Position numbers and translations under genes: made by a program. Below the pieces are notes generated by a model. The model did not search any database and was not told the DNA's origin. It was given only the letters and a program-made list of their open reading frames with translations. Shown piece after piece: positions 14,899-23,359 of a stretch of DNA of 64,000 bases (positions are counted from its first letter, which is position 1; each line of letters begins with the position of its first letter). Origin of the DNA: Promethearchaeota archaeon. GTDB lineage: Archaea; Asgardarchaeota; Lokiarchaeia; Sigyniarchaeales; SOKP01. The DNA is taken from positions 1 through 64,000 of the forward strand of contig JAEOTR010000016.1 of the NCBI GenBank assembly GCA_016839705.1, written 5' to 3'.

Positions 14899-16071
14899 TT
14901 GGGATTAGAATCTGATTTAAAGGAGAACTCTGCACTAAAAGGATCTAAAAAATTTACCATTAGAGAATTTGGGGGTGCATTTGGAGATTGGGGAACACTT
15001 ATTCCGTTTATTATTGGTTATATCTCAATAGTGGGTTTAAAACCTGCTGGCATCTTTCTTACATTAGGGTTAACAAATATAATTCTGGGAATTCGTTTCA
15101 ATTTGCCCTTACCAGTTCAACCACAAAAGACAATTGGAACCGTGGCAATATCAGAAAAATGGACTTCTAATATGGTAATATCTACAGGATTTGGGACGGG
15201 AGTTATTTGGTTTTTACTAGGATTTTCTAAAAAACTAAATAAAATAGTGCAGAAAATTCCCATCACTGCCGTACGAGGCATTCAGTTAGGTTTGGCTTTA
15301 ATTTTAGGGTGGGCAGGAATTGTTTTTTTTAGTGGAAATCTATTACTTGGTCTCATTTCAATCTTAATAATATTATTGTTGATAAAGAATAAACCGATCC
15401 CCTCTGCGATAATCCTTACTTTAATGGGTGTTTTAATAGTTATATTCACGGGTACAGTACAGCTATCTGATATTAGATTAGGTTTGCCTATTTTTAGCTT
15501 TGAATTCCCAACCTGGCAGAATTTCTTATTAGGGATGGCTTATGCGGGTATTGCTCAATTATTTTTAACAATTACGAATGTCATGATCGCTACAGTTGTA
15601 TTAATTAAGGATTTATTTCCAGAGAGGGAAGATAATATAGATGCGAATGTCTTAGCATTCAATATGGGTGCTATTAACCTTATTAACCCTTTTTTAGGGG
15701 GAATCCCCTTATGTCATGGATCTGGCGGACTAATGGCTCAATATGCGTTTGGAGCAAGAACTGGAGGATCTATGATTTTGGAAGGAATTCTGGAAATAGT
15801 ACTTGGATTATTTTTTTCTAACACTCTCTTTTTACTCTTTTCCGAGTTTCCGAGTTCCATTTTAGGTGCAATGCTAATTTATACGTCATATTTATTAGGA
15901 AGAATAGCATTTAAAGATTTTAACCGCAAAAGTTTCCCAATAATACTCATATCAGCCATTCTCTGTTGGTATTTAAATATTACAATCGGTTTCTTTATTG
16001 GTCTTATTTTATATCTGATGTTTAAAAAAAAAATTGAAGGAAAGTTGAATATAAATAAAAAATTGATCTAG
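14899..16071 (+). CDS. Molybdate/sulfate transporter (MOT1-like)
   Basis: GAFGDWGT, PLPVQP, PLCHGSGG...FGARTG. Confidence 0.85.
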   Translation: MGLESDLKENSALKGSKKFTIREFGGAFGDWGTLIPFIIGYISIVGLKPAGIFLTLGLTNIILGIRFNLPLPVQPQKTIGTVAISEKWTSNMVISTGFGTGVIWFLLGFSKKLNKIVQKIPITAVRGIQLGLALILGWAGIVFFSGNLLLGLISILIILLLIKNKPIPSAIILTLMGVLIVIFTGTVQLSDIRLGLPIFSFEFPTWQNFLLGMAYAGIAQLFLTITNVMIATVVLIKDLFPEREDNIDANVLAFNMGAINLINPFLGGIPLCHGSGGLMAQYAFGARTGGSMILEGILEIVLGLFFSNTLFLLFSEFPSSILGAMLIYTSYLLGRIAFKDFNRKSFPIILISAILCWYLNITIGFFIGLILYLMFKKKIEGKLNINKKLI

Positions 16072-16236
16072 ATACCGAAAAAATTGTTTAAATAAATTTT
16101 TGAAATATTAGGATATTCCTCTTATCTTTATTTAAAATGTATTAAATTTTTGATTTTTTTATATTTTAAATTAACAATTATTTTAAGGTATAATTCAGAT
16201 ATTCATAATAGAACTAATTAAGATGGTGATATTGGA

Positions 16237-16929
16237 ATGTTTTCTGAAAATGAACTTAATAATGTTAAAAGGGAAATGGCAAAACTTAAGAATCCAGTAG
16301 AGCTCCGTCTATTTACTGATTTCAAAACTCAAGAAGATGGGAGTAAACTTAGAAAGTGTATGACTTGTGAGGGAGTGCACGAGTTATTAACAACATTAGA
16401 AGAGCTCTCTAATGGAAAATTAAAAGTAAATGAATTTTCAACCGAAGAAAATATGGAAGAAGCAGAAAAATATAATGTTTCTAGAATTCCAGCGATATTA
16501 TTCGTTGATGAAAATGACAATGAAATTATTCGATACTTAGCACACCCTACAGGATCTGAGTTTGTACCTTTTCTAAATAGTATACAATATTTTTCAGGAG
16601 TAAGACCCTATTACGCGGATCAAATCATTACTCATCTAAAAAAAATAAAAAAGTCAAATATGAAAATTTTTATTACCCCCACATGCCCGTATTGCCCCGC
16701 AACAGTACCAGTTTTAACGCTTTTTGCAATGGTTTCTAAAGGAAAGATATCCGCAGAAGTAATTGACGTTAACTTGAATCCTGATTTAGGAATGAAATAT
16801 CAAGTTCAAGGAGTACCCCATACAATCGTGAATGAAAAGGATAGTATAATCGGTCAATTTACTCCTCAAGATTTGCTTGATAAACTTGTTGGGTCGAAAG
16901 GAAGAGATTTTGGAGGGATGTATGCATAA
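16237..16929 (+). CDS. Protein disulfide oxidoreductase (PDO/AhpF-N-like), copy 1
   Basis: Two thioredoxin folds, CMTC and CPYC. Confidence 0.88.
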   Translation: MFSENELNNVKREMAKLKNPVELRLFTDFKTQEDGSKLRKCMTCEGVHELLTTLEELSNGKLKVNEFSTEENMEEAEKYNVSRIPAILFVDENDNEIIRYLAHPTGSEFVPFLNSIQYFSGVRPYYADQIITHLKKIKKSNMKIFITPTCPYCPATVPVLTLFAMVSKGKISAEVIDVNLNPDLGMKYQVQGVPHTIVNEKDSIIGQFTPQDLLDKLVGSKGRDFGGMYA

Positions 16930-17613
16930 ATGTCTCAGGATGATAAATATAAGGAAATTATTAAAACAGAAATGGCCAAGTTAAATAAACCTGTTACTCT
17001 GAAGGTATTTACATGTAAGGAGAAACAACCAAGTGGAAGTCAAATACGAGAATGCATGGATTGTGGGCAATTTATGGCTTTACTGAGGGTCTATGAAGAA
17101 AATTCGAATGGGATGCTCACAATTGAAGAACTATGTATTGATGAGAGTCCCGAGTTCGCTAAACAATATGACATAAGTCGAGTCCCAACTATTTTATTTA
17201 TAGATGATCAGGGGAGAGAAGTTATTCGCTATTTAGCCTCGCCCAAAGCGGGTGAAATTCAACCATTCATTCAAGCGGTATTTGCATTTGCCGGGGCATC
17301 CAATTATTATGAGAATACGATACGGCAGAACTTAAACCGTATCAAGCCATCTACAATAAAGGTGATGATAACAGAAACTTGCCCATACTGTCCGCAGGTT
17401 GCTACGATAGTTAACAATTTTGCGATTGCGTCCAATGGAAAAATTAGATCAGTCATAATCGATATAATAGCAAATCCAGATATCGGTCAGTATTACGATG
17501 CCGCAGGTGTTCCCTATACGATAATAAATGATCAAAAAACAATTGTTGGAATGGTTGGTGCACCTGAGATATTAAAGGCATTGATTGGGAGTAATATTCG
17601 AGTTCAGTATTGA
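16930..17613 (+). CDS. Protein disulfide oxidoreductase, copy 2
   Basis: CMDC and CPYC; abuts copy 1. Confidence 0.88.
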   Translation: MSQDDKYKEIIKTEMAKLNKPVTLKVFTCKEKQPSGSQIRECMDCGQFMALLRVYEENSNGMLTIEELCIDESPEFAKQYDISRVPTILFIDDQGREVIRYLASPKAGEIQPFIQAVFAFAGASNYYENTIRQNLNRIKPSTIKVMITETCPYCPQVATIVNNFAIASNGKIRSVIIDIIANPDIGQYYDAAGVPYTIINDQKTIVGMVGAPEILKALIGSNIRVQY

Positions 17614-17734
17614 TTCACTCTAACTAGTTATACTCTATTTTTTTGTATAGAAGAAACCTTTTTAGGCTGTTGTACCCTAGATTAAAAAAGAACTAATATT
17701 TGTAAGGATTATAATATAGAAAGGAGATGAAAAG

Positions 17735-18679
17735 ATGTTTAACATTGATATGGAAAGTATCGATTTAGAAAAAACATATGACCTTATTGTTTTGGGAGGA
17801 GGACCCACAGCAATAGGGTGTGCTATTTATGCTGCAAGGTTTGCCATGGATGTACTGATTATTGGTAAAATGTTTGGAGGATTAATTGCAACAACACATG
17901 TCGTTGAAAATTACCCTGCTATCACCACTATTAGCGGTCAGGGCCTTATGGAGATGTTCAGAGAACATATGAACTCCCTTGATATTCCATACATATCTGA
18001 TGAGATACGAAGCATTGAAAAAGTCGATGATCATTATGAACTTAACTCTTTCTTTCAAAAATTTAAGGCATATTCAATTTGCATCGCTACTGGTTCAGAA
18101 AGGAAAAAACTTGGGGTTCCAGGTGAAGAGGATTTTGCTGGAAGGGGAGTCTCGTATTGTGCAACTTGCGATGGACCTTTTTATAAGGATAAAGTTGTTT
18201 GTGTAATTGGTGGGAGTGATTCTGCTGCAAAAGAAGCACTTTTTTTAGCTCAAAACACTAAAAAAGTTTATATTATTTACCGTGGTAAAGAAATACGAGC
18301 TGAACCGATAAACAAGCAAAGAGTATATGAGAATAATAAAATAGAAATTATATATGAAACGAACATAGTTGAGATCAAAGGAGACACTAATGTGAAATCA
18401 GTTATTTTTGACAATGGAAAAGAATTTGAAATAGATGGTGTTTTTATAGAGATAGGCTCTATTCCAAAGTCAGACTTAGCAAAACGAGTAGGAGTAAAGA
18501 CTAATGAGAAAGGGGAAATCATGATAAATCGTAAATCAGAAACTAATATCCCGGGTATCTTTGCTGCAGGAGATGTAGCTGATGCTCCATTTAAACAAGC
18601 GATTACTGGTGTATCTGAAGGTGTAATTGCCGCTTATTCTGCTTTTGATTATGTAAAGGAAATGGATATAGAATATTAA
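17735..18679 (+). CDS. trxB: Thioredoxin reductase
   Basis: GGGP, GRGVSYCATCDG, FAAGD. Confidence 0.95.
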   Translation: MFNIDMESIDLEKTYDLIVLGGGPTAIGCAIYAARFAMDVLIIGKMFGGLIATTHVVENYPAITTISGQGLMEMFREHMNSLDIPYISDEIRSIEKVDDHYELNSFFQKFKAYSICIATGSERKKLGVPGEEDFAGRGVSYCATCDGPFYKDKVVCVIGGSDSAAKEALFLAQNTKKVYIIYRGKEIRAEPINKQRVYENNKIEIIYETNIVEIKGDTNVKSVIFDNGKEFEIDGVFIEIGSIPKSDLAKRVGVKTNEKGEIMINRKSETNIPGIFAAGDVADAPFKQAITGVSEGVIAAYSAFDYVKEMDIEY

Positions 18680-18859: not shown

Positions 18860-19195
18860 TTATTCGATATTTACATCTATACTATGATATTCAGACTCTC
18901 TAAAAGGCACTTCAATCTTTAAAAGCCCCTGTTTATAAACTGCTTTTGCTTCTTCTGGTTTTACTGGGCAACAAATAGAATAGGTCCCGATATAAATGGT
19001 ATCGTCGGTTTCTCCTTTAATGAAAAAACTATCATCATGCATCTTGAGTTTGATTGAATCTTTTTCTGCTCCAGGTAATTGAATTTCGATTTTGTAAGTT
19101 TCACTTTCATCATCAGCCCAGGAACAAATTTCAGGAGCCATTAAATACTTATCTTCTTTCGAGTCTTCTATAACTTCTTCTTTAACTTCTTCCAT
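18860..19195 (-). CDS. Small heat-shock protein (Hsp20)
   Basis: LPGAEK...AVYKQGLLKIEVP alpha-crystallin motif and C-terminal IDV; ATG at 19195 preferred to the TTG at 19249. Confidence 0.85.
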   Translation of the reverse strand: MEEVKEEVIEDSKEDKYLMAPEICSWADDESETYKIEIQLPGAEKDSIKLKMHDDSFFIKGETDDTIYIGTYSICCPVKPEEAKAVYKQGLLKIEVPFRESEYHSIDVNIE

Positions 19196-19378
19196 TTTTT
19201 TCACTCTAAACCGATTTTTTATTTTTGATTTCTTTATAAATCCATCCAAAGTAGCTGATTTAAAAGTTCTTTCTATAGTTAATTAAAAAATCAAAATTCT
19301 TCGCTTAAAGATTAAATTGAAAATCAGTTTTATTTTTAAAATATAAAAAGTCATAAATTTTCTTGAAATTAAGCACTC

Positions 19379-20305
19379 CTATTGAGGTTTTAGCAAAAGC
19401 GAACCTGTTGATAGTATTTTTAAAATTTTCTCCCAATAATATTCTATTTCCCAATCTTGGGTATTTTTTATCTTTTCAGAGATTTCTTTCAAAACTTCTT
19501 TTACTTTAAGAGAATCAAAATAAGTTATGTTGGGTGCGATTATAGAAAGCATATATTGCTTTTCTCTGAATCTTTCGTTTTTATCTGGAAAAGCATCAAA
19601 AAAAACGTATCCTTGTTTTTTTATATTTTCAATATTGAGTAAAATGCCTTCAGCTTTAGTGATTTTTTGATGTCCATAAATTGAGGTAGCAGCATGGAAT
19701 AATTGTTTACCTATAGTACTGATTGAAAAATGACATTTTTTCTCAGGAGGATGACTATTCCTCAATATGGGGCCCTCAATATCGTCCCAAAACACAATTA
19801 ATAGATAAAAAGGTAAGGTATCATCTTCAGAAATAGATGGTTGCATTTCTATTTGATAGGAGGTTAGTAAATCCGTAATTTTTTTATCTATTAAATCAGT
19901 TTTTCGATTTCGAGCAATCTTTCCTGAGACTGATGCAATAAGGTCTTCCTTATTAAATGGTTTGGTGATGTAATCATCAGCCCCTAGCATTTTACCCAAT
20001 CGAATATCTTCTGGAGTGGATTTTGCTGTTAGAAATAAAAATGGTATACGATTCCATTGAGGATGAGAAGAAACCGCAGAAAAAAATTCGTAGCCATTCA
20101 TATTTGGCATCATTATATCGGAAATGATCACATCAGGAATTGCATTTAAAGTAGAGAGATTCTTAAGTGCTGTTTCTCCGTTAATGGAAGTTATGACGTC
20201 ATAACCCCTTTCTTCTAGCATAATTTTTAGGTTGAAGAGGATATCATGATTGTCGTCGACGACTAGAAGAAGGGGTTTTGCTTTCACCATTCTAATTTTT
20301 CTCAT
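19379..20305 (-). CDS. Response regulator receiver fused to a putative longin/uDENN-like output domain
   Basis: VVDD, SDIMMP, FLTA, ITKPF receiver motifs; C-terminal FWDDIEGP and DKNERFREKQYMLSII. Confidence 0.85.
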   Translation of the reverse strand: MRKIRMVKAKPLLLVVDDNHDILFNLKIMLEERGYDVITSINGETALKNLSTLNAIPDVIISDIMMPNMNGYEFFSAVSSHPQWNRIPFLFLTAKSTPEDIRLGKMLGADDYITKPFNKEDLIASVSGKIARNRKTDLIDKKITDLLTSYQIEMQPSISEDDTLPFYLLIVFWDDIEGPILRNSHPPEKKCHFSISTIGKQLFHAATSIYGHQKITKAEGILLNIENIKKQGYVFFDAFPDKNERFREKQYMLSIIAPNITYFDSLKVKEVLKEISEKIKNTQDWEIEYYWEKILKILSTGSLLLKPQ

Positions 20306-20356
20306 TAAACTAGTAAGAAGATATTTGAATCTATTATTATTTAAAATTTTTTGAAT

Positions 20357-22213
20357 TCAATCAATTAAAGGTAGAAATACATAAAATGTTGTTCCTTTAT
20401 CTAATTCACTTTCCAAGAAAATCTCCCCTTTATGAGCTTCAATTAAATCTTTTGCTATAGCTAGTCCCAATCCTGTCCCAGAAATTTCATTTACATTACT
20501 AGAACGGAAAAACCGTTCAAAAACATGAGGGATATCCTCCTTTGGGATACCACGACCATAATCTTCGAACTGAAAGAGAATTCCTAGAGATTCGTTTGGA
20601 TTATATTTACCTTGGTAATTATTGAAAGCCTGAACTTTAATTTTTGAATTTTCCTTTGAATATTTAATGGCATTATCAATAATATTCCGAAAAATTTGGT
20701 CCACTCTTTTTGGATCACCTTTTAAATGAAGATTATCATCGATATTCATTTCAAAATGAATATTTTTTTCCTTACCAATAGGTTCTAAAAGATATAAAAT
20801 TTCATTAATTATTTCTGACGGATTATAATCTTCCCATTCCAGTTTTAACATATTTTCATCAATTCTCAAAATTAATAAAATATCCTCGGCTAAATCGTTT
20901 AATAAATGGATATTTCGAGTAATCCCATCAATTAATTTCTCTTCTAAATCTTTTTCAAGCTTATCCCGATTTTTAGTAAGATAATCTATTGACATCAATA
21001 AAACGGTGATAGGGGTTCTTAATTCATGTGAAACTGTAGAAACTAATTGTGATAATCTTTCCTCCGCCTTCCTACGTTCTGTTATATCAGTAGCAACACT
21101 GAGAAGAGATGAAAATTTTCCATCAATATCTTTCAAGGGTTGTTCAGTTATCCAATATGTCTTTCTTCCAGTTGGTAAATGAAATGTTCGCTGATATGCT
21201 CGACTAATTCCATTCTGAATTAATTCGCGGTTACTTTTCAAAAATTCTTCTGATTCTTCTCTAGAGAAAACTTCAAAAACCGTTTTTCCAATAAAATCTT
21301 CTGGTTTCCCCCCTAATTCGCTTGCTGCTTTTTCATTTACTAACATATATGTCCCATTCTCGTCCAACATTGTAATCCCTGCTCCAGAATGTGTAATAAT
21401 ATTTTTTAACTCCAATTCACTTCTTCTGATTTTTCTAAATAATAAATTAAAGGGCTCCTTTATCCCAATTTGAATGATAGCTTTGTACAAGAGATAAAAT
21501 GCAATTATTTTAAAGATATGTCCAACAAGGTTAGAAAAATCATAAACTCCAATATAGAAGGTGAATGCTAGTTCAGCTATTATTGTTGCTATAATTGAGC
21601 TGAAAATTAAATATAAGACTCTTTTATCAAACTCAATCTTTTGTTTGAAAATAATTAAGAGGCAAGTTAGGAGTATGAAAATGATAATATATTCACTCAC
21701 AATTTTAAAAGGAGTTAACCGATCAATATAGCAGATGGGAAATAATTCAGCAAAAATGAGAACTATTAATAATATTGTAATGACCAAGTAAGAAACGATA
21801 AGAAAAACGGGTTTTACATTTTTCTTGATTGAAAGTGAAGCTATTAAACATGAACTCGCTTGAAGATACCTTGCCGCAATCCATAAAGAAGTTGGAAGAT
21901 TCGAAGTGTAACCTTCAAAGATATGCATACCAGTATAAGCTAGGGTGTGAATTAAATCGATAATGCCAATAAAAAGAGAAGATACACCGAGAATCAAAAA
22001 GAAGGAATTTTCCATGTATCTTCGTGAGTTCCAACCCACAAAAAACACACCACCAGCAATAACTATACTAAATATCTCAGCAATGCTATGGAATAATAAA
22101 TAGTTTATGAAGCTTGAAAAGAATGTAAATACCAGAGCTATTGAAAAGACTAAAATTTCAAATAATTCTGGATTTACCTTAGGTGAGGTTGTTTGATTAT
22201 TTTCATTCAACAT
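20357..22213 (-). CDS. Sensor histidine kinase (MASE3 - PAS - HisKA - HATPase)
   Basis: NYLLFHSIAE (MASE3), SHELRTP, NIIDNAIKY, GTGLGL. Confidence 0.92.
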   Translation of the reverse strand: MLNENNQTTSPKVNPELFEILVFSIALVFTFFSSFINYLLFHSIAEIFSIVIAGGVFFVGWNSRRYMENSFFLILGVSSLFIGIIDLIHTLAYTGMHIFEGYTSNLPTSLWIAARYLQASSCLIASLSIKKNVKPVFLIVSYLVITILLIVLIFAELFPICYIDRLTPFKIVSEYIIIFILLTCLLIIFKQKIEFDKRVLYLIFSSIIATIIAELAFTFYIGVYDFSNLVGHIFKIIAFYLLYKAIIQIGIKEPFNLLFRKIRRSELELKNIITHSGAGITMLDENGTYMLVNEKAASELGGKPEDFIGKTVFEVFSREESEEFLKSNRELIQNGISRAYQRTFHLPTGRKTYWITEQPLKDIDGKFSSLLSVATDITERRKAEERLSQLVSTVSHELRTPITVLLMSIDYLTKNRDKLEKDLEEKLIDGITRNIHLLNDLAEDILLILRIDENMLKLEWEDYNPSEIINEILYLLEPIGKEKNIHFEMNIDDNLHLKGDPKRVDQIFRNIIDNAIKYSKENSKIKVQAFNNYQGKYNPNESLGILFQFEDYGRGIPKEDIPHVFERFFRSSNVNEISGTGLGLAIAKDLIEAHKGEIFLESELDKGTTFYVFLPLID

Positions 22214-22254
22214 TTTTATTAAAATGTAACTATAAAAATTTCTTCAAAAACTGA

Positions 22255-22803
22255 TTAAGGGATTGTAGATTTTTCAAACGTTGCATATATTGATGTTTTA
22301 TGTAGAGAATAAATTAAATTTGGGGGAATTACTCCTTTTATCTTTTCAATTAATCCTTCAATAATGCTTTCATTTAATTCTTGATTAAATTCTAAGTCTG
22401 GATCGTATTTATGGAGAAAAATCGAAAAATCAATATCATTGAGATCCTTAATTGCTTTCATCATTTTTTTCAAGTAATTAATAGCTAGATCATACCGTTT
22501 TGCATCTTGGACATCAAAAACATATATAATTTTTTTAGTTCCTCTTAAAAGATTTTCGATATCATTAATATATTCATCATGATATGCTTCCTGACCTCCA
22601 AGATCCCAGATGGCATATTTCGATTCTAAGGCTTCAAATCGTTCTATTTCTAAGCCTCTTGTAGGGTTAAGGGAATTGAATGCGGATAATCCCTTGATTC
22701 CTTTCAAACATTTTAATATCGAAGTCTTACCTCCATTATCTAAACCTATTAACAGAATTTTTTTCGAATATTCTGATGAGCCAATATCATTTGGATTATT
22801 CAT
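22255..22803 (-). CDS. Small GTPase, Rag/Arf-like (Asgard type)
   Basis: G1 GLDNGGKT, G2 PT, G3 WDLGGQ, G4 HKYD, G5 TSI. Confidence 0.92.
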   Translation of the reverse strand: MNNPNDIGSSEYSKKILLIGLDNGGKTSILKCLKGIKGLSAFNSLNPTRGLEIERFEALESKYAIWDLGGQEAYHDEYINDIENLLRGTKKIIYVFDVQDAKRYDLAINYLKKMMKAIKDLNDIDFSIFLHKYDPDLEFNQELNESIIEGLIEKIKGVIPPNLIYSLHKTSIYATFEKSTIP

Positions 22804-22845
22804 AATTCTTAGAAATGCATTAAAAATAAATTATAATATTCGAAT

Positions 22846-23190
22846 TTAAGACAGCGTATCAATTATATCAACATCTCTTATATCCTTTAATTTCTCCTTG
22901 TTAATGGTAGTTACAATTGAATTTATTTGGGTTAGAAGATTTTCGATATTAATATTTCTATTTAGTTTGTAGTACTTTATATTACCTCTTTTCTCAAAAT
23001 TTATAAGGTTATTATCTAGAAGCATGTTTAGATGTTTTGAGGTTGTTGATTGAGATCTACTTAATTTTCTTTGAATTTTTGATGAGGGTAGTTCATTATC
23101 TTTTAAAATGTCTAAGACTTCTAATCGTGTGGCATCACCTAATACCCGTAAGAACTCAACGATAGATCGTCTAAATTCAGCAGAAATCAT
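22846..23190 (-). CDS. ArsR/SmtB family regulator
   Basis: LGDATRLEVL, SQSTTSKHL. Confidence 0.9.
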   Translation of the reverse strand: MISAEFRRSIVEFLRVLGDATRLEVLDILKDNELPSSKIQRKLSRSQSTTSKHLNMLLDNNLINFEKRGNIKYYKLNRNINIENLLTQINSIVTTINKEKLKDIRDVDIIDTLS

Positions 23191-23290
23191 ATTTTATAAG
23201 AATGTGTTTTTATAGCTTTTTAAAGCTTATTTTAATGGAATATTAGTGTTTTCTTATTAATACGAAAAACACAAAGATTTAAATATTATT

Positions 23291-23326
23291 TTATCGTAAT
23301 ATTACTATATCGCAATATCGCGATAT
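23291..23326. promoter_or_regulatory. Candidate operator between divergent ArsR and Lrp genes
   Basis: Three TATCG-Y-R-ATA copies; perfect palindromes GTAATATTAC (23296-23305) and ATATCGCGATAT (23315-23326). Confidence 0.5.
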
Positions 23327-23359
23327 ATGAATATTATTAAATATTAAAGGTCATGGAAA

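Follow-up and report, generated by a model that had tools for sequence, protein, structure and literature searches.

Four open reading frames, all on the minus strand, form a cassette in the 64,000-nt window (the whole stretch of DNA that was analysed), encoding an ArsR-type winged-helix protein, a small GTPase, a MASE3-PAS histidine kinase and a response regulator (Table 1). The gaps between them are 42, 41 and 51 bp in gene order and AT-rich when read by eye; a first-pass annotation made from the sequence alone had likewise described four genes on one strand with gaps of about 40-50 bp, and the ORF list bears this out. Downstream of the regulator a 183 bp AT-rich spacer with T-runs precedes an Hsp20 gene, whose start is likely the ATG at 19195 and which is probably transcribed apart from the cassette. 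In the related loci L001-L005 the cassette is identical in arrangement, and an Hsp20 of 104-109 aa comes after the regulator. Besides Hsp20, the neighbours of the cassette comprise genes for a thioredoxin reductase and two thioredoxin-fold proteins.

Table 1. Coordinates of the cassette genes, the domains of the regulator and the flanking features within the window
Feature	Position	Strand	Evidence
ArsR/SmtB-type winged-helix protein, 114 aa	22846..23190	-	HTH_5, NF033788; first cassette gene
Small GTPase, 182 aa, Rag-like G domain	22255..22803	-	Gtr1_RagA, Arf profiles
Membrane sensor histidine kinase, 618 aa	20357..22213	-	MASE3, PAS, HisKA, HATPase_c
Response regulator, 308 aa, receiver and predicted longin	19379..20305	-	Response_reg; longin by predicted fold
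REC domain of response regulator	19928..20266	-	Response_reg 4.8e-25
Predicted longin output domain of response regulator, residues about 165-300	19406..19813	-	AlphaFold2 fold, motifs
Hsp20 small heat-shock protein gene, downstream of regulator	18860..19195	-	HSP20 2e-7, NF041800
Divergent intergenic region, ArsR versus Lrp/AsnC gene	23191..23359	.	CGATAT palindromes, TATA-like AAGCTTTAAAAAGCTATAAAAA box

The product of the first gene matched HTH_5 of Pfam (1.6e-8) and NF033788 of NCBIfam (64.4 bits, cut-off 55), as expected of an ArsR-family winged helix. A metal-sensing ArsR/SmtB protein was considered and rejected, as the sequence contains no cysteine and one histidine and thus lacks a Cys/His metal site. 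The gene keeps its first position in orthologous and paralogous cassettes. Overlapping CGATAT palindromes are present at 23307-23326 in the divergent intergenic region (two matches against 0.13 expected), and CGATA repeats with the TATA-like AAGCTTTAAAAAGCTATAAAAA box are likewise kept upstream of the ArsR orthologues. The ArsR-type protein belongs to the unit and would be either its autoregulator or its transcriptional output.

The small GTPase matched the Gtr1_RagA profile of Pfam (6e-20, 72.1 bits; cut-off 22) and also the Arf profile (5.8e-19, 68.7 bits). Its motifs, unvarying among orthologues and paralogues, are GLDNGGKTS (G1, 22720-22746), PTRG (G2), DLGGQ (G3, 22591-22605), HKYD (G4, 22402-22413) and KTSIY (G5, 22285-22299), of which HKYD and TSI had been pointed out in the first-pass annotation and are read directly in the sequence. 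The DxGGQ signature is unvarying, the catalytic Gln71 is present and the P-loop carries no arginine. An Arf identity was rejected because the N-terminus, MNNPNDIGSSEYS, has neither Gly2 nor an amphipathic helix, and because G4 is HKYD rather than NKxD. The nearest solved structures are Rag-like GTPases of Lokiarchaeota (8yl2, 8.6e-24; 8zla/9m28, 3e-18), which together with Rag/Gtr proteins resemble the cassette GTPase in the G domain, in HKxD at G4 and in TSI at G5; a literature look-up on PDB 8YL2, 8ZLA and 9M28 and on 'LokiRag' names found nothing relevant. Unlike all of these, the cassette protein lacks a C-terminal roadblock/longin domain. It stops at residue 182, 10 residues past G5, and therefore has no roadblock tail, as had been remarked from the sequence before; the next gene begins 41 bp on. 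Such a domain is usual in Asgard Rag-like GTPases (8yl2, 9m28 and the long GTPases in the clusters of relatives, which in other families reach 300-460 aa). The earlier description of the GTPase as Rag-like thus stands for the G domain only, as the C-terminal dimerising domain that marks Rag/Gtr proteins is missing and the score of the Arf profile is almost as high. The cassette has a single GTPase gene, with no Rag-type heterodimer evident.

The kinase matched MASE3 (6e-78), PAS_4 (1.3e-11), HisKA (4.3e-10) and HATPase_c (1.1e-27) in Pfam and NF047874 (MASE3_PAS_HK, 1.6e-102) in NCBIfam. The H-box, SHELRTP, is read directly at 21008-21040, and its combination of HisKA and HATPase_c is that of a class I sensor histidine kinase. 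In the regulator, Response_reg covers residues 14-126 (88.3 bits), and the complete set of two-component receiver residues is present, comprising the phospho-acceptor D63 (20117-20119), the acidic pair D17/D18, T93 and K115; all are unvarying or nearly so across 32 homologues. Alignment to solved receivers with VIA gave Z values of 19-20. In the predicted model, α5 of the receiver extends as a single helix over residues 119-149.

Response_reg is the only Pfam family in the regulator, in agreement with the first-pass reading that a DNA-binding domain is lacking, and residues 135-308 matched no Pfam or NCBIfam family. The regulator does have an output, however, which on its predicted fold is a longin domain (residues about 165-300) overlooked by Pfam. 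Because the full-length model yielded receiver domains only in a fold search, this domain was modelled alone. The AlphaFold2 model, of moderate confidence (pLDDT 79, pTM 0.76), has the topology β1-β2-α1-β3-β4-β5-α2-α3. With VIA-align it matched a Loki longin (8yqg_B, Z 12.6), FLCN (11.7), C9orf72 (11.6), Lst4 (11.0), and DENND1A and FNIP2 (10.4 each), and the best 50 matches were all longin or roadblock domains; the longins of Mon1-Ccz1, TRAPP and DENND1A also match the fold, at Z 8-10. The leading Foldseek matches were FNIP2, GATOR1, SEA, FLCN and Lst4. A roadblock fold was rejected, given that the order of strands and helices is that of a longin and that roadblock matches did not exceed Z 8.3.

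The predicted longin domain contains the sequence WDDIEGP (19769-19789), in which W173, G178 and P179 are unvarying across 37 diverse orthologues and paralogues. A profile of the domain searched against the PDB gave the human C9orf72 longin as sole match at a marginal E value of 0.019, and the alignment pairs W-D-x3-G-P of the regulator with W33-D34...G38-P39, placing G178-P179 on G38-P39. The WD and GP motifs and an arginine finger have been described as hallmarks of GAP longins, with GP specific to that group and missing from DENND, TRAPP and adaptin longins (PMC12290439). In SMCR8 the arginine is R147, the counterpart of FLCN R164, located in the βL4-βL5 loop (10.1101/2020.04.16.045708). 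Arg245 of the regulator (codon 19571-19573) lies between strands 230-240 and 248-257 of the model, in the β4-β5 loop, and is kept in 35 of the 37 members (at least 90%). It is a candidate arginine finger on the strength of the model, and is equated with FLCN R164 and SMCR8 R147 by loop position.

The eukaryotic longin GAPs, namely FLCN-FNIP (for RagC/D), GATOR1 NPRL2-NPRL3 (for RagA/B) and C9orf72-SMCR8 (for Arf and Rab8/11), are heterodimers with DENN domains. The regulator has in common with them the longin fold (β-β-α-β-β-β-α-α), the GP that closes the β1-β2 loop, the WD of C9orf72 and the arginine of the β4-β5 loop, and the client predicted for the regulator as a GAP is similar, being an Arf/Rag-type GTPase with the catalytic glutamine. 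Unlike these GAPs, the regulator ends after the longin with no C-terminal DENN domain, and it is the product of a single gene instead of a heterodimeric pair, with WD, GP and arginine in one chain; there is one longin gene per cassette here, and some relatives have receiver-longin genes in tandem. Its longin moreover shares a polypeptide with a receiver and a gene cassette with a histidine kinase, outside any lysosomal or mTORC1 context. Yeast Lst7 is also without DENN (10.1101/2020.04.16.045708).

Relatives likewise keep the GTPase near the kinase-regulator pair, a point on which the first-pass annotation had staked its proposal: in 79 further genomes of the family, a GTPase orthologue lies no more than 4.5 kb from a receiver-longin gene on the same contig. 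Another family of the same order (locus L062) also has the cassette, with 32-40% identity, two genomes (G184, G224) hold a second complete cassette, and a paralogous triad (G000 C43) comprises kinase, receiver-longin and GTPase. Clusters in other families likewise include Rag-like GTPases, there 300-460 aa long. GTPase and receiver-longin genes are jointly missing from four genomes of 90-100% completeness (G145, G146, G147, G149) and from others. For comparison, such a GTPase lies within 6 kb of 4.9% of random positions in the source genome and of none of its six other receiver genes, and the arrangement is far beyond chance. Outside the orthologous cassette, a GTPase is lacking within 6 kb at 16 of 29 sampled loci with receiver-longin paralogues, and one paralogue in the source genome adjoins CotH-VTC genes instead.

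Trees of the longin and of the GTPase contain the same cassette-type clades, in which paralogues follow the cassette and not the genome they come from. A Mantel test gave a modest correlation (r 0.37, reached in 26 of 5000 permutations), and the matching clades weigh more than this figure. The two domains are also joined in single proteins with their motifs kept, as REC-Arf-like GTPase-longin in Heimdallarchaeota LC_3 (OLS23803.1) and as Ras-like GTPase-longin in another protein.

On balance we favour, with moderate confidence, a longin regulator that is driven by the phosphorelay and acts directly on the cassette GTPase, probably as a phosphorylation-gated GAP. The first-pass annotation had proposed that a phosphorelay controls the nucleotide state of the GTPase, and a longin bearing the GP, WD and arginine motifs of Rag/Arf GAPs would provide a concrete route from phosphorylation to that state. 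The path that we infer runs from the signal sensed through phosphotransfer, dimerisation, binding and GAP activity to a downstream output. The membrane MASE3-PAS histidine kinase would phosphorylate Asp63 of the regulator, and phosphorylation of the receiver would re-set a dimer held via the long α5 helix, joining two longin domains. The longin pair may then build a catalytic pocket resembling that of the eukaryotic longin-longin GAPs, and the folliculin/NPRL2/C9orf72-type longin would act directly on the Rag-like GTPase encoded two genes upstream. The active site of the GTPase, with Gln71 in place but lacking an arginine, would be completed by Arg245, which lies beside the WD and GP motifs. 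More tentatively, the regulator could be a homodimeric, phosphorylation-switched arginine-finger GAP on a bare Rag-type G domain, a minimal archaeal version of the FLCN/GATOR1/C9orf72 off-switch in which a His-Asp phosphorelay replaces the nutrient-sensing complexes and the GTPase controls the ArsR-type regulator and a stress/redox regulon.

Longin domains more often serve as GEF platforms or scaffolds, and the regulator longin might bind the GTPase without being a GAP, as an exchange factor (modelled on DENN, Mon1-Ccz1 or TRAPP), as an effector of the nucleotide state (modelled on SRX on SR-β or RomR-RomX on MglA), or as a dimerisation domain supplied in trans to the tail-less GTPase. The matches of DENND1A, Mon1-Ccz1 and TRAPP to the fold are in keeping with such roles, as is the lack of the tail usual in Asgard Rag-like GTPases, and the GTPase-longin fusions suit a scaffold as well as a GAP. 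RomRX has lately been re-read as an effector and not a GEF (PMC13408092, abstract). We nonetheless consider a non-GAP longin rather unlikely, given the reported specificity of the GP motif for GAP longins (PMC12290439), the near-universal arginine in the same loop as in FLCN and SMCR8, and the GAP group being nearest in both fold and sequence.

The flow of information could also be reversed, with a GTPase-longin-kinase complex in which the nucleotide state tunes the kinase or phosphotransfer and ArsR or another factor is the output. The Streptomyces conservon links a small GTPase to a histidine kinase and a roadblock protein, with interactions that depend on both catalytic activities, and conservon CvnA-D and Myxococcus MglA/MglB/RomR resemble the cassette in uniting two-component parts with a regulator of the roadblock superfamily and a small GTPase (PMC4316618). 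That the kinase nearly always adjoins the receiver-longin gene in the sampled loci, and that hybrid kinase-REC-longin proteins exist, would fit as well. However, a conservon consists of a kinase, a stand-alone roadblock, a DUF742 protein and an MglA-type GTPase, whereas the cassette pairs an Arf/Rag-type GTPase with a receiver-longin fusion, and no DUF742/CvnC-like gene was seen in it. The conservon is also without a receiver; here a canonical one with all phospho-site residues stands between kinase and longin, which argues for the usual kinase-to-regulator direction and makes reversal improbable. Least likely, we believe, is a single stress regulon whose genes are co-regulated without contact between their products, the regulator longin having another target. 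The proximity of Hsp20 and thioredoxin-related genes and the many receiver-longin paralogues with no GTPase nearby would be expected of it, but linkage holds across genera, families and changed gene orders, the paralogues co-diverge, some single proteins combine the domains and both genes are lost together. Direct action of the regulator on the GTPase remains the preferred reading.

Asgard genomes encode dozens of small GTPases and longin/roadblock proteins. According to Tran et al. (PMC10933270), the GTPase genes do not as a rule share operons with longin or roadblock regulators. Fusions of NPRL2-like longins to two-component domains in Asgard archaea have been published, most of them without conserved neighbourhoods (Liu et al., 10.1101/2020.10.19.343400, Fig. 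5c), and the regulator, a receiver fused to the same kind of longin, is a member of that class; kinase-REC-longin and PAS-longin forms occur as well. The finding is thus less novel than the first-pass annotation had assumed. In the accessible part of that source the fusions are presented alone, with no partner GTPase or ArsR-GTPase-kinase-regulator cassette named, and linkage, co-divergence and GTPase fusions add a candidate target to the class. The GP and arginine motifs of Asgard 'FLCN/SMCR8-type' longins, also found in the cassette longin, have been published with a proposal of ancestry shared with eukaryotic GAP longins (PMC12290439). Which GTPases partner the GP-motif longins is a question posed in that work, which leaves ArfR versus Rag open and does not mention receivers, whereas for the cassette the partner follows from gene order and fusions. 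A receiver-longin-GTPase cassette is likewise unmentioned in Vargova et al., in an archaeal two-component census and in a 2026 structural-clustering preprint. The cassette is therefore no system of a new kind, and what is gained is a defined, conserved pairing backed by co-divergence and fusions; it names one candidate regulator-target pair, which is likely a forerunner of the eukaryotic Rag/Arf off-switches. The four cassette proteins are small and soluble or truncatable, and the pair is therefore open to bench testing. If the regulator is a GAP, the arginine-finger longin mechanism of folliculin, GATOR1 and C9orf72 would be older than eukaryotes, and in Asgard archaea would be driven by a bacterial-style phosphorelay.

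The cassette encodes an ArsR-type protein, a small GTPase of 182 residues, a MASE3-PAS histidine kinase and a response regulator of 308 residues, and lies in an AT-rich window (about 30% G+C). As the first-pass annotation had described, the four open reading frames are co-oriented and closely spaced, with gaps of 42, 41 and 51 bp, and profile searches bear out the identities of the products. The Gtr1_RagA and Arf profiles match the GTPase about equally in Pfam/NCBIfam searches. Direct reading of its sequence located the HKYD (G4) motif reported earlier at 22402-22413 and the TSI (G5) motif, as KTSIY, at 22285-22299, together with GLDNGGKTS, PTRG and DLGGQ. The protein ends 10 residues beyond G5 and so, as had also been claimed, has no roadblock tail. 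Because the catalytic glutamine of DLGGQ is retained and the P-loop has no arginine, an arginine supplied in trans is plausible.

Features of the cassette and its surroundings
Feature	Coordinates	Strand	Evidence or remark
ArsR/SmtB-type winged-helix protein	23190..22846	minus	HTH_5 1.6e-8; NF033788 64.4 bits
Small GTPase	22803..22255	minus	Gtr1_RagA 6e-20; Arf 5.8e-19
MASE3-PAS-HisKA-HATPase_c histidine kinase	22213..20357	minus	MASE3 6e-78
Response regulator	20305..19379	minus	receiver domain, residues 14-126, sole family match
Spacer between divergent ArsR and Lrp/AsnC genes	23191-23359		overlapping CGATAT palindromes, 23307-23326 (2 matches against 0.13 expected); TATA-like AAGCTTTAAAAAGCTATAAAAA box
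Hsp20	18860-19249		ORF listed from TTG at 19249
MOT1-type transporter, two double-thioredoxin-fold proteins, thioredoxin reductase	14899-18679	opposite to cassette	adjoin cassette

The regulator had been described as having no DNA-binding domain. This stands, and residues 135-308 match no Pfam or NCBIfam family; the protein is not without an output, since by its modelled fold this region contains a GAP-type longin domain, which makes the proposed wiring of kinase to GTPase concrete. The region is strongly conserved and matches 196 proteins, nearly all of them receiver fusions of about 300 residues, and those with a named source all belong to Asgard lineages. AlphaFold2 models of the whole regulator and of the domain alone (pLDDT 79, pTM 0.76 for the latter) gave the order β1-β2-α1-β3-β4-β5-α2-α3, which is that of longins. 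In fold searches the full-length model retrieved receivers only. With the domain model, the best 50 VIA-align matches were all longin or roadblock domains, led by the Lokiarchaeota longin 8yqg_B (Z 12.6 over 134 residues) and followed by FLCN (Z 11.7), C9orf72 (Z 11.6), Lst4 (Z 11.0), and DENND1A and FNIP2 (Z 10.4 each), while the top Foldseek matches were FNIP2, GATOR1, the SEA complex, FLCN and Lst4. A longin sequence profile built from 37 diverse members found the longin domain of human C9orf72 as its sole match among all PDB sequences (E 0.019, 131 residues), setting the W-D-x3-G-P of the regulator on W33-D34...G38-P39. A language-model look-alike search of the domain returned archaeal clusters, some carrying the NPR2 family, and serves as a lead only.

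Residues W173, G178 and P179 are invariant over orthologues and paralogues, and 35 of the 37 members have R245, which the model places between the strands at 230-240 and 248-257. PMC12290439 describes GP as a motif found only in longins of the GAP type (FLCN, NPRL2, SMCR8 and C9orf72), the WD motif of C9orf72 as essential and the arginine finger as catalytic. R147 of SMCR8, equivalent to R164 of FLCN, lies in the βL4-βL5 loop (10.1101/2020.04.16.045708). All three motifs are present in one class of Asgard longins, whose partner GTPases were posed as a question (PMC12290439).

A synteny survey of Asgard relatives upheld the linkage of GTPase and regulator. Across the phylum, 147 of 400 genomes carry the longin domain; in the window's family the figure is 118 of 134, and 110 of 135 family genomes carry a GTPase orthologue (E at most 1e-30); cross-tabulation of the listed places put the two genes on the same contig no more than 4.5 kb apart in 79 other family genomes from nine genera. 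Four relatives, one of them a closed 3.3-Mb genome, share the exact order ArsR, GTPase, MASE3 kinase, receiver-longin, Hsp20, and in another family of the order the cassette is recognisable at 32-40% identity (L062). Four genomes of one genus, 90-100% complete, lack both genes (G145, G146, G147 and G149), whereas another member of that genus, G148, has the two next to each other. Among the nine receiver genes of the window's own genome, a GTPase lies within 6 kb of two of the three receiver-longin genes versus none of the six others; a random position has such a neighbour 4.9% of the time.

The two further receiver-longin genes of this genome lie on contigs C43 and C85. On C43 (L036:2726-5195) the gene is divergent from a HisKA-HATPase kinase gene and shares 17 bp with the end of a convergent gene for a 197-residue Arf/Rag-like GTPase, a triad also present in G188 and G204. 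The C85 copy (L037:7514-8476; longin part 52% identical) is directly upstream of CotH kinase, VTC-domain and DUF4956 genes. The lack of a GTPase in its neighbourhood points to another target or output. A complete second cassette, from ArsR to regulator, occurs in G184 and G224 at 36-53% identity. In other families the GTPases adjoining receiver-longin genes are of 300-460 residues with Gtr1_RagA as best profile; in one case the neighbour is a true Arf-like protein. At L047:4946-8402, a kinase and a receiver-longin gene are followed by three consecutive GTPase genes, two of Gtr1_RagA type (406 and 416 residues, with N-terminal extensions) and one truly Arf-like (Arf 1.2e-47). Outside close orthologues, a GTPase was within 6 kb in 13 of 29 sampled receiver-longin loci, so that the association is strong but falls short of universal. 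For 38 longin-GTPase pairs, the longin and GTPase trees have cassette-type clades in common, with the paralogues of one genome divided by cassette type instead of grouping by genome, and the Mantel r of 0.37 was reached by 26 of 5000 permutations.

Against 1.84 billion representatives, the domain profile matched only 300 clusters. These include a 567-residue protein of Heimdallarchaeota LC_3 (OLS23803.1, P0390; WDE..GP, RGG) that joins receiver, Arf-like GTPase and longin in one chain. Others are a Ras-family GTPase-longin fusion, a longin-TPR protein and hybrids of kinase, receiver and longin. Every one of these proteins has the WD, GP and arginine motifs. The database name of OLS23803.1 is 'Transforming protein p29 precursor'. 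The longin is also C-terminal in a receiver-less PAS-PAS protein (560 residues, L038:9319-11001) and in a PAS-HATPase-receiver hybrid (686 residues, L056:9858-11918), which makes it a general-purpose output domain of signalling proteins in these archaea. Tandem receiver-longin pairs occur in several genomes, at L045:1168-3042, L046:8752-10623, L077:8973-10856 and L073:5160-7090, with the arginine kept in both copies at L045 and L046; by analogy with eukaryotic longin GAPs, such pairs could form heterodimers.

On comparative-genomic grounds, linkage, paralogues and fusions support the earlier proposal that the two-component system is wired to the GTPase; phosphorelay control is itself a prediction. 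In the reading that fits best, the kinase would phosphorylate D63, and the longin domain would then act on the GTPase, most likely as a GAP, judging from its motifs and nearest structural matches. In the full-length model the receiver α5 runs on into the linker as a 30-residue helix, and receivers with similarly extended helices are among its best fold matches. Eukaryotic longin GAPs work as longin-longin dimers. Taken with the extended helix, this makes phosphorylation-controlled dimerisation of the regulator a reasonable candidate for the trigger.

The cassette is a variation on known kinds and is not a new system. In bacteria, two-component parts are linked to MglA-type GTPases (PMC4316618), and the accessible part of Liu et al. 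describes two-component domains joined to NPRL2-like longins in Asgard archaea and proposes that Asgard growth control stayed centred on two-component systems, with no mention there of a partner GTPase or of an ArsR-GTPase-kinase-regulator cassette (10.1101/2020.10.19.343400). GTPase genes are generally outside operons with roadblock or longin genes (Tran et al., PMC10933270), and the receiver-longin architecture is absent from the archaeal response-regulator census. The value of the cassette is that regulator and target form a well-defined pair that is conserved and can be tested.

The ArsR-type protein contains no cysteine, and its gene accompanies the cassette even in paralogous copies; it may be an autoregulator or an output of the cassette. 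ArsR orthologues of several genera have the CGATA repeats and TATA-like box ahead of them as well, giving the spacer the look of a conserved operator and promoter. Since Hsp20 proteins of relatives have 104-109 residues, the ATG at 19195 is the likely Hsp20 start. A promoter of its own is probable for Hsp20, as the 183-bp spacer that separates it from the regulator contains AT-rich boxes and T-runs. The transporter, thioredoxin-fold and thioredoxin reductase genes are also neighbours at two other loci (L001 and L004), and together with Hsp20 the reductase and the two thioredoxin-fold proteins weakly hint at stress or redox as the signal.
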